13,291 bases of DNA from a virus (Duplodnaviria > Heunggongvirae > Uroviricota > Caudoviricetes). The stretch lies in IMG/VR virus record IMGVR_UViG_2711768011_000008; one strand, given 5' to 3'. Below are positions 1 to 3,000 of the stretch, piece by piece. How positions within the stretch are numbered: the first letter of the stretch is position 1; the number at the start of each line of letters is the position of its first letter. Made by a program: the position numbers.

Positions 1-3000
1 AGGGACAGCTGATAGAAACAGAAGCCACTGGAGCACCTCAAAAACACCATCATACACTAAATCAGTAAGTTGGCAGCATCACCAGCCTTCTTGAGGCTAC
101 CACCTGTTTTCAGGTGTCATTCAGACGTGATTTGCCCCAGATTGGGAAAGCACGCTTTTTTCTCAGCTATCGTCCTCTTATTTTGCCGTTACATTTCTTT
201 TTGCATTCTAATGATTAATTTACAATAATAATATCGGTAATTATTGAGTAATAATAAATTAATTATTGCAAATGTAATTTAATTCCATCTTCGCGTTATA
301 TTCCAATCTTTAATCTCCGCATGGAACAAGTTGCATGCGTGACTATATTAAGACGACTTATAACCACCAAAACATTTGCTTTGCAAGCAAAAACAGTGAC
401 CATTGACTCTAAGAAAATTCCGATCTATTGTTAGGGTCATCAAAGTTACTTAACAGTATTCCGAAATGAAAATACAAAGCAAGCTAATTGTCTTATTAAA
501 CATTATTATTGCATTTATATTATTTGAGCTTTTAGCTCAAAAATTTGGTTTGAGTACATTATTTTAAAGCAAGATAAACAATATCGGGCACTCTAGTTTT
601 TATAATTAACAATTAAACGTCCATAAAATGTTATTTACTTTTCTTCGCTATTGTCATATCTTAATATAGTGGCTTACGCCACTCTACTTTCATCACATTT
701 TGTACGTTTATGTACTCGCCATGAAGCTCTTTCATGGCGATTTTTTATTCTTAATCCAAGAACATACTCCCTACCTATAGCAAAATCACTTTTTTAACAA
801 AAGAATAACGTATTTAGGTAATCATTACGAATTTACCCTATAGGTGCTACTGGCCATTCAATATCCGGTGCAGTTGATGTATCAACACGGTTCAGCAACA
901 CCCGATACTTTTTCCAAGCTTCCAGCAACAAGGTTTCTTTCTCCGTTGCGATCTCCAGATCCACAGCATCCTGAAGCGGCGCTATATGCTCACTGGCTAC
1001 CTGCATCAGGCTGTTTTTTGTTTCTTCCGCCTCCCGGATCCGGAACAGTTTTTCTGCTTCCGTATCCTTCACCCAGGCTGTGCCGTTCCACTTCTGAAAC
1101 TCCCCTTCCGGGGATAACCAGGTGACATTTTCCGGTAATGAGCCGAGTTCAGAAATAAATAACGCGTCGCCGGAAGCCACGTCATAAACCGTTTTACCCC
1201 GATGATCTTCAACGAGATGCCACGATGACTCATCACTGTTGAAAACAGCCACGAAACCAGCCGGAATATCTGGCGGTGCAATATCGGTACTGTTTGCAGG
1301 CAGACCTGTATGAGGCGGAATATATGCGTCACCTTCACCAATAAATTCATTAGTTCCGGCCAGCAGGTTATAAATTTTTATGGTCCGTGCTTGTTCACTC
1401 ATTCTGAATGCCATTATGCGAGCCTCACAATATAGTTAAATGCGATGTTTTTGACGGTGTTTTCCGCGTTACCAGCAGCGTTAACGGTGATGGTGTGTCC
1501 ATGTGAACCAATCGCAACAGAGTGCGTATGAGCACCAATACCGACAGTATGCGCGTGTGCACCCGCAGATGCTGCTGTGCCGGACAGTGAGTGTGTATGG
1601 TTTCCTTCTGAAGATGATTTACCTACCCATTGGGAGGTGCCACTGGTTAATGAGCCACTGATACCAACCTGATTAGTCCCGCTAACTTGAGTACTCCCTG
1701 CCGGAAACATTCCAGTAGGTTGACTCCCGCTATTCGTTCTGGGCCCAGTCTGACTATGTTGGTGGGCCCCAGCTGAACTTGTAGAGCCGCTCAGACTGTG
1801 CGTATGCGCCCCGGTGTTATTCGTGGATTTAGTGCCGTAATCAAACGACGATGTGGTTTTCGTCCCCAAATCCGTACTGGATGCGCTGGCGCTGTGGGTG
1901 TGCGATTTAATGCCATCCTGTTCCTGAGACAATACGGCACGACCACTGGCGGGCTTGCCCTTAATCGTCCAGCCACGCATATCAGGGATCACGCCTGACG
2001 GATAAGCGGCTGCAAGTTTCGGGTAAGCAGATTTGTCAAAAGTCTGCCCCTGCATCAGGGCATAACCAGACGGAACGGTATCTGATGGCCACGGGATTGG
2101 TGCACCGACTGGATAAAACTCTGCAGGAGGATGAGCCGAGGTGTAAAGCTGCGCCCACGGCGACCAGTTTGCGTCGGTCGTATCCCGTCGTGAACGAATA
2201 AATGCCGGAGCATGAGCACCGCTTGTACCACTCCAGCCGATGAGTAACTCACCTTCGCCAACGGCTGTCATCCCTTTCAGGTGAATGATATTTCCATACG
2301 CTGTTGGATATCCGTTGTTATACACCTCGTATAACTCAAGACCTGCTGCCCCCTGCGTATTGTCTGTCAGCGCGGCTACCCGACCTTTTGAAGCCAGATT
2401 AACTGATGATACTGCTGTTCCACCTGACGGTAGCGCCCCGATCTCTGATGCCGTTGGCTTATTTCTGGAGTTATAGTCCCTTCGCCAGCCAGGTGAATAA
2501 TCTGTTCCGTGATTAATATAGGTAAACTGGGCGTTGGTTGTTCCGCCACCGCTGGATGTGGTCGGAGTGGTAATGCGGATCGTCATCGCTGACTTTATCC
2601 CCATTACTTCAATGACAGCTCCGGCGAGATGAATATTACCGCAGCCAGTATCAGTAATGATTTTATTATTGCCATAAGACCAGGAACCCTTGCACATCCA
2701 GTATGGATGGTTAAATGCTCCCTGAGAATCCAGCCACTCGATAAACTGTGCAGTCGTCCAGTTTCCTGTTGTTGTGCTTACTGACCCACCGAAGGCACGG
2801 CAGGCACCAATATTTTTCGTAAAGGTGTCTTTGCCAGGGATATCCGCACCGTTCTGATCTTTCTGCAGACGTTTCTCAGCATTGTCATTGGCTGCTTTTA
2901 CTGCCTTTGGCGTTGCCGCCAGCGTTTCAGACGTGCTGTTGGTCGCGCTGCTTAGCTGGATTATCCCTTTCTGTGCTGTCGTTGCATCCTGTGCGGTGTA

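Follow-up and report, generated by a model that had tools for sequence, protein, structure and literature searches.

Whether the AT-rich DNA at the tail end of a lambda-like prophage encodes a protein, an untranslated RNA or nothing of consequence is the question raised by IMG/VR record IMGVR_UViG_2711768011_000008, a 13,291-nt stretch of caudoviral DNA, called the window here. Coordinates are positions in it unless another sequence is named. The segment in question spans 84-832, downstream of the tail fibre assembly gene tfa. We consider it probable that it carries a prophage cassette made up of a gene for a 33-residue membrane protein similar to YncL, a likely sigma-70/sigma-S promoter, a long 3' untranslated region (3'UTR) and a strong terminator. 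No description of this cassette was found in the literature searched. Its predicted parts are as follows.

287-402, plus strand: conserved region 5' of the promoter, present in all cassette copies at three attachment sites, 25% divergent between deep lineages
403-431, plus strand: promoter candidate P1 of the sigma-70/sigma-S type from a consensus scan (TTGACT, 17-nt spacer, TATTGT, C at -13)
466-567, plus strand: putative 33-codon gene for the YncL-like small membrane protein MKIQSKLIVLLNIIIAFILFELLAQKFGLSTLF, assigned from coding constraint and YncL similarity
568-668, plus strand: variable 3'UTR portion, more divergent than any other in the cassette, with TATAAT at 601-606
669-682, plus strand: small hairpin GTGGC-TTAC-GCCAC, present in every fold, at the start of a conserved 3' block
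683-715, plus strand: conserved AU-rich linker CTCTACTTTCATCAYATTTTGTACGTTTATGTA, in which 2 of 33 columns vary
716-746, plus strand: predicted Rho-independent terminator from scan and inverted repeat, stem TCGCCATGAA/TTCATGGCGA, 5-nt loop, T6 tail
747-832, no strand assigned: spacer from the terminator to the tfa stop codon, occurring as two unrelated sequence types
321-434, 651-797 and the nested 335-406, with 296-403 and 348-443 on the minus strand: other open reading frames (ORFs) of at least 30 codons, all broken in divergent copies

The 33-codon frame and its product

The initial annotation had placed a small ORF at 466-567, and it is present there. To follow it through related prophages, we compared 36 distinct haplotypes of window 280-850 taken from E. 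coli genomes, phages and IMG/VR contigs. They form two deep lineages, a main one in ~806 genomes, with sub-clades 88-99% identical to the window, and a divergent one in 21 genomes, ~78% identical to it. Searches of IMG/VR and metagenomes with peptide patterns returned the same two lineages and no further one, and an 18-base motif from the conserved block gave nothing but chance matches in unrelated phyla among the GTDB species representatives. The 33-codon frame was intact in all 36 haplotypes, which encode four peptide variants, and likewise in further metagenome copies.

Between the two lineages the ORF differs by 18 substitutions, and these change five residues (V9I, I15F, F17L, E21K and S30Y), all of them conservatively or at the end of the helix. 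Synonymous and nonsynonymous differences (pS 0.56, pN 0.088) gave a nonsynonymous to synonymous ratio (dN/dS) of 0.09, an estimate that covers essentially one deep branch, as only two lineages were found. Differences at codon positions 1, 2 and 3 numbered 7, 1 and 10, respectively. When the 18 substitutions were placed at random 20000 times, five or fewer residue changes resulted in a proportion of 1e-4. The five other ORFs of at least 30 codons in the segment had lost the start or contained stops or frameshifts in divergent copies. An interrupted or unconstrained frame in homologous prophages had been named initially as an outcome that would count against the gene, and the opposite was observed. 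To judge from these comparisons, 466-567 codes for a protein that purifying selection has maintained.

The product could also be placed in a family. NCBIfam NF000537 (YncL) matched the peptides of the two lineages with E=1.3e-5 and 3.7e-5, residues 1-28 aligning to profile positions 1-28. BLASTP against K-12 YncL, whose sequence was taken from the genome (MNVSSRTVVLINFFAAVGLFTLISMRFGWFI), gave 11/28 identities (39%) without gaps from Met1, E=2e-7. Considering that composition alone can make hydrophobic peptides match, we applied a shuffle test. The alignment score to YncL was 60, compared with 20 +/- 4 in free shuffles of the phage peptide and 23 +/- 5 in shuffles that kept the layout of polar head, helix and tail, and none of 20000 shuffles reached 60 (P<5e-5). 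Residues M1, S5, L10, N12, A16, L19, F20, L22, F27 and G28 were invariant in all five sequences aligned. Residues 7-24 have a mean Kyte-Doolittle hydropathy of 2.87 (2.16 in YncL), the helix being flanked by K2 and K6 on its N-terminal side and by K26 on its C-terminal side. At 33 residues with a single hydrophobic helix, the peptide has the dimensions of the family (~30 residues, one such helix). Pfam and PHROGs gave no match for it. The hydrophobicity and the YncL homology support the earlier proposal that a small hydrophobic membrane peptide is encoded, and by these alignments the product is a YncL homologue, a paralogue rather than an orthologue.

YncL (b4598 in K-12; orthologue STM14_1932 in Salmonella) is a 31-residue inner-membrane protein that increases in minimal medium, heat shock and stationary phase (PMC12542507). 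It and the phage product are tiny single-helix peptides, 31 versus 33 residues long. When YncL is produced, the membrane is depolarised to a sublethal degree, the nucleoid condenses, cells become hypersensitive to magainin-2 and viability falls (PMC12542507); the same study also describes a phage-shock response and reduced protein synthesis. YncL is cleaved by RseP in vivo (PMC10470546), and its mRNA is a RIL-seq target of KilS, a small RNA (sRNA) of the Rac prophage (PMC8175672). The phage copy differs from yncL in being prophage-borne and very AT-rich, whereas yncL lies on the core chromosome. It also differs in its start region, K-12 yncL having the Shine-Dalgarno sequence AAGGTGG and the phage gene none, and in a long conserved 3'UTR that is unrelated to that of yncL.

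The predicted transcript from promoter to terminator

The promoter TTGACT-N17-TATTGT was recovered at 403-431 by the consensus scan, with 9 of 12 positions matching. The -35 element TTGACT was retained in 55 of 57 sequences sampled. The -10 element reads TATTGT, or TATCGT in the divergent lineage, and the GATCTAT preceding it is invariant, giving a C at -13. A C at this position favours sigma-S. Divergence between lineages was 10% in the promoter region and 25-27% in its flanks. This conservation fits a functional promoter without demonstrating one. Like the phage gene, K-12 yncL stands alone, with a short leader and a C at -13 before the -10 element; the -10 region is ACTATACA in K-12 yncL and TCTATTGT in the phage cassette. 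RpoS holoenzyme has a strong site in the K-12 yncL/ydcX spacer (PMC5493296). The Salmonella yncL gene depends on sigma-S and was originally catalogued as the sRNA STnc1110 (PMC5437024), and the phage locus would likewise yield a transcript that could be mistaken for an sRNA.

From this promoter, transcription would start near 438 and produce an RNA of ~310 nt, consisting of a ~28-nt leader that lacks a Shine-Dalgarno sequence, then the ORF, then a 3'UTR of ~180 nt, and ending at the plus-strand terminator at 716-746. The strong terminator of the initial annotation was found again, as a stem of 10-11 bp at 716-740 followed by TTTTTT on the plus strand only. Terminator-like matches were slightly enriched in 1-1500 (2 versus 0.9 in shuffles). 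The inverted repeat is perfect across 10 bp, and the stem is invariant in all copies, with the tail variants TTTTTT, TTTTT and TTTCTT. The stem lacks a downstream T-run when read on the minus strand, and the terminator is therefore predicted to act on the plus strand only. Its position would shield tfa and the neighbouring stf from antisense read-through out of the cargo, including sitABCD in prophages at the icd site. A DNA-invertase crossover site was also considered for TTATTCTTAATCCAAGAA, which follows the terminator; at most one hix/gix half-site was recognised by eye, and the candidate was dropped.

The 3'UTR is uneven in its conservation. Positions 568-622 diverge by 43% between lineages, with a 4-nt indel. 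In the block that follows, the hairpin at 669-682 varies by a C-to-T change that keeps a G-U pair and by one loop change, and the linker varies only at columns 696 and 715 in all copies, even in the lineage whose divergence elsewhere amounts to 20-25%. The hairpin, the AU-rich single strand and the terminator with its U-tail together have the architecture of an Hfq-dependent or 3'UTR-derived sRNA. Apart from a match inside tfa that is described below, Rfam returned no family at threshold in 1-1500 and 590-770, the best hits scoring 15-23 bits against gathering scores of 50-102. Complementarity of the linker to targets in the window or in the K-12 yncL region did not exceed chance.

Three candidate elements in the 3'UTR were rejected. 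The TATAAT at 601-606 is TACAAT in the divergent lineage and has neither a usable -35 element nor an extended -10 element, so it was discarded as an internal promoter. A long-range helix between 609-631 and 696-717 found no support from covariation: at the candidate pair 630/696, GC occurred 23 times, GU nine, AU three and AC once, the pair being broken in that one haplotype. A minus-strand ORF at 661-735 is open only since the block barely varies, and most changes within it alter the amino acid.

As a separate observation, one sequence, L011 (4001-4600), is a clean recombinant: as far as the terminator block it resembles L005, and past that block L004. The 70-nt block thus appears to act as a crossover point between exchangeable modules.

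Weighing the readings

Several observations weigh against a YncL-like gene. Promoter-like matches in 1-1500 numbered 6, and shuffles gave 4.8 +/- 2.3. The initial annotation reported no good Shine-Dalgarno sequence; none is visible before the ATG (...AGUAUUCCGAA-AUG), and none was found in either lineage, which is the main point against efficient translation; an open start region that might compensate for this was sought and rejected, the unpaired probability being 0.44 there and 0.47 over the whole transcript. The YncL model scores of 25.0 and 23.5 bits lie under the equivalog cut-off of 35, so the peptide is called a YncL-like paralogue and the name YncL itself does not apply. The segment is rich in ORFs of 30-50 codons, and since the pattern in a single sequence is within chance, the case rests on the comparative evidence, in which the selection estimate has the single branch noted above. 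The ORF is never annotated by PGAP and only very rarely called by gene finders: a set of 15 billion predicted proteins contained two cluster members, plus one frameshifted variant, P0002, on two assembled (Logan) contigs.

A HMMER search of 1.84 billion representative proteins likewise found only the identical peptide and one frameshift variant. P0002 has 43 residues (MKIQSKLIVLLNIIIAFILFELLAQKIWFEYIILKQDKQYRAL) and looks as if one nucleotide had shifted the frame within the A-run of CAAAAATTTGG, whether in a rare allele that has been inactivated or through an assembly error. A tblastn search of the phage collection with the peptide gave no match despite four records with an identical ORF and is uninformative on absence; the low-complexity filter or the E-value statistics on a short hydrophobic query are probably the cause.

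If the ORF were a chance frame in AT-rich DNA and a non-coding sRNA the sole product, the missing Shine-Dalgarno sequence and the many frames of similar length would be expected, ~16% of the random placements of the 18 substitutions do keep the frame open, and Salmonella yncL itself was once taken for an sRNA (PMC5437024). The dN/dS of 0.09, the almost untouched second codon position (P=1e-4) and the collinear, ungapped and significant similarity to YncL speak against this, and the RNA hairpin inside the ORF (523-541) is not conserved. The initial annotation had held an untranslated RNA to be at least as likely as a peptide; the coding constraint and the homology to a validated small protein counter that view, and we regard an sRNA without a protein as highly improbable. 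We attach just as little credence to a type I toxin-antitoxin pair, in which an antisense or divergent sRNA restrains a membrane-toxin peptide. The phage product is a small, hydrophobic and helical peptide, and the type I toxins Hok, Ldr, TisB, ZorO, ShoB and Ibs are likewise small hydrophobic membrane peptides, often found on mobile elements; the depolarisation and loss of viability caused by YncL (PMC12542507) would suit a toxin; and a promoter-like site on the minus strand (657-628) would direct a transcript complementary to the last part of the ORF. The -35 element of that site degrades in the divergent lineage, though, and no minus-strand terminator follows it. The sole 12-nt complementarity (342-353 with 659-670) is lost in the same lineage, and a sequence search, which cannot fully exclude an antitoxin, found no inverted repeat or complementary segment and no antisense partner. 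Unlike those toxins, the phage peptide thus has no detected antitoxin RNA, and it shows no Pfam or NCBIfam similarity to their families. The YncL literature found describes no such pairing, and PMC10470546 lists YncL apart from Hok toxins. The toxin-like label given at first is not borne out. A mostly inert spacer, in which the terminator alone matters by insulating the tail genes, the block is a recombination linker and the ORF a decaying relic, would explain why mosaic joints coincide with both edges of the block and why the cassette always adjoins tfa while the cargo on its other side varies. A relic would not keep a frame intact in every copy and a dN/dS of 0.09 while all neighbouring ORFs decay, and we judge this reading very unlikely.

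A fourth reading accepts the peptide and adds a second product: the conserved last ~80 nt (~666-746) would be released or separately transcribed as an Hfq-binding 3'UTR sRNA, predicted to act on host or phage mRNAs. The block at 672-741 differs by 5.7% between lineages, compared with 20-43% in its left flank and 36% in its right flank, and each of its substitutions either affects a loop or linker or leaves a G-U pair. Compared with shuffles, the stretch 613-748 folds much more stably (z = -6.4), and weak full-length matches to Hfq-sRNA models end at 746-748 (VrrA 23 bits, MicC 22.8, Hrs12, rseX, Esr41). There is a precedent in KilS, a prophage 3'UTR sRNA from Rac kilR (PMC8175672), and like KilS and CpxQ the locus has a terminal hairpin, linker and terminator at the end of a small mRNA. 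In contrast to these sRNAs, neither an internal promoter nor covariation was found: the internal TATAAT lacks a -35 element, and two-sided compensatory changes are absent from the predicted long-range helix. No Rfam family comes near its gathering score, and in three clades a C breaks the U-tail (UUUCUU). Among main-lineage copies the block shows no reduced variability, with 8.6% variable columns versus 6.9-10% in the ORF and the other 3'UTR parts. The L011 crossover lies within the block, the right half of L004 being that of L011, so the island of conservation could be a recombination joint. We therefore hold a released or separate sRNA to be unlikely, and it is doubtful that a single ~310-nt prophage transcript reprogrammes the host at both the membrane and the post-transcriptional level. 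The gene for a YncL-like membrane protein remains the reading that we prefer.

A portable cassette at the border of the tail genes

The window covers the tail end of a lambda-like prophage, with its genes running on the minus strand (tape measure, M, L, K, I, J, lom, stf and tfa). The surroundings of the cassette, and the cargo on its far side at each of three attachment sites, are listed below; L001 is strain TUM9757 and L002 strain 2009C-3133.

1-83, minus strand: terminal 83 bp of IS1, from alignment to the IS1A-annotated L002
84-286, no strand assigned: AT-rich spacer remnant outside the portable cassette, without a conserved ORF
833-1414, minus strand: tfa (tail fibre assembly), from its ORF and annotation in relatives, convergent with the cassette
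1414-4503, minus strand: stf, from annotations of relatives
bio (lambda site): far-side cargo, an AraC-family regulator
ydfJ (Qin site): far-side cargo, a hypothetical gene
icd: far-side cargo, sitABCD in the same orientation as the cassette

As described at first, the segment is far poorer in GC than the flanking tail genes (27-34% across 101-800 versus 45-55%), and 84-832 holds no ORF that reaches 60 codons; the longest, of 52 codons (70-228), has its start codon within IS1. Within the 749-bp segment only ~287-832 (~255-832 in some lineages) forms a conserved unit. This unit directly follows tfa in prophages at all three attachment sites, with different neighbours on the far side. It was present in 831 of 5426 complete E. 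coli genomes (~15%) and in only four records of the phage collection, its carriers including mEp332, PhiR70_1 and ev099; the records listed hold no annotation on it. The spacer at 747-832 is of type A in the window and of type B in L004, L010 and L011, the two types differing by 36% and switching right after the terminator.

The cassette has its own promoter-like site and terminator, lies beside core phage genes, deviates in GC content and varies in presence, as morons do. On this evidence 287-832 is likely to be a moron-like, independently transcribed cargo cassette placed after the tail-fibre genes, and the comparison of relatives supports the earlier description of a self-contained promoter-ORF-terminator unit, carried as prophage cargo and convergent with the tail operon. 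With lambdoid morons and conversion cargo (lambda lom and bor, sitABCD, type III effector genes) it shares the position at the end of the late operon and a deviant composition, and it resembles lambdoid morons in having its own predicted promoter and terminator and exchangeable neighbours. Unlike theirs, its cargo is a gene of only 33 codons, which annotation pipelines do not report.

The other end of the segment has been shaped by IS1. Window 1-900 aligns to L002 5918-6817 with 99.3% identity, and the IS1A transposase annotated at L002 5248-5945 ends at the point corresponding to the end of IS1 in the window, where we recognised what we take to be the IS1 inverted repeat. The edges of the matches between L001 and L002 (L001 5245-5450 = L002 5027-5232; L001 6001 = L002 6001) place the whole element at L002 5233-6000, 768 bp, and show that 550 bp (L001 5451-6000) were lost in the IS1 lineage relative to L001. 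Relatives free of IS1 are TUM9757 and three isolated temperate phages, mEp332, PhiR70_1 and ev099, in all of which the AT-rich DNA runs ~750 bp further, as part of a spacer of ~1.5 kb that leads up to a divergently transcribed gene for an AraC-family regulator; beyond this gene lie IS remnants and then attP-int-xis or bio genes. The segment had been labelled an orphan, which is wrong: it is the IS1-cut end of this spacer, and it looks orphaned here because the IS1 insertion and the 550-bp deletion separated the cassette from the remaining cargo. Judged by this alignment, it is the IS1-truncated end of a phage cargo region equivalent to the b region of lambda. The part at 84-254 is common only to the bio-site lineage and the phages mEp332, PhiR70_1 and ev099.

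Further observations concern these surroundings. The 83/84 junction of the window recurs in at least 13 IMG/VR contigs, and the IS1-junction lineage is widespread. The AraC-family regulator (L001 4501-5244, minus strand; also in L002, L007, L008 and L009) scores 149 bits with the YdeO model, under its cut-off of 348; by similarity it is a YdeO/GadX-like, phage-borne relative of the acid-resistance regulators. The lost 550-bp piece holds ~60 nt resembling the 3' part of tRNA-Ser, with T-arm and acceptor end (L001 5829-5888, minus strand), which was detected by a plastid 3'UTR model and a tmRNA T-arm; ARAGORN found no complete tRNA there, and the piece is probably a fossil attachment site within the phage cargo region. 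Positions 84-168 (85 bp) are a mosaic piece with matches in hundreds of E. coli genomes, where its prophage context differs, and it grows to 215 bp with the L001 sequence on its left. In an O26 strain (L006 2872-3086) this piece lies between uspF and DUF1076 (NleG-type) genes and adjoins a 56-codon ORF labelled 'capsid protein', which looks misannotated. The divergent-lineage cassette is bracketed by tfa pseudogene fragments in the same orientation (L004 4892-4991 and 5596-5754; L010 3892-3991 and 4596-4754), an arrangement that suggests insertion into a duplicated tfa sequence or recombination within one. On the minus strand, a full-length match to the Rfam family IS009 at 873-1071 (218 bits, gathering score 117) lies wholly within the tfa coding sequence, and this 'sRNA' family seems to represent part of a tail fibre assembly gene.

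By analogy with YncL, the peptide would insert in the inner membrane as a single helix, residues 7-24, and when made by a lysogen would modulate membrane potential and stress physiology. Known kinds thereby gain a member, namely the YncL-type small membrane proteins and the phage morons, with a cassette that was itself previously unannotated. Annotation routinely misses small membrane proteins, and this one occurs in ~15% of complete E. coli genomes and is annotated nowhere. The conserved 3' block is a candidate prophage sRNA, or else a recombination linker at the boundary where the tail genes give way to exchangeable cargo. A YncL relative carried on prophages suggests that temperate phages may tune lysogen physiology through the same membrane effect, with possible consequences for stress tolerance, sensitivity to antimicrobial peptides and the exclusion of other phages. 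As the carrier phages mEp332, ev099 and PhiR70_1 grow on laboratory strains, this idea is directly testable.

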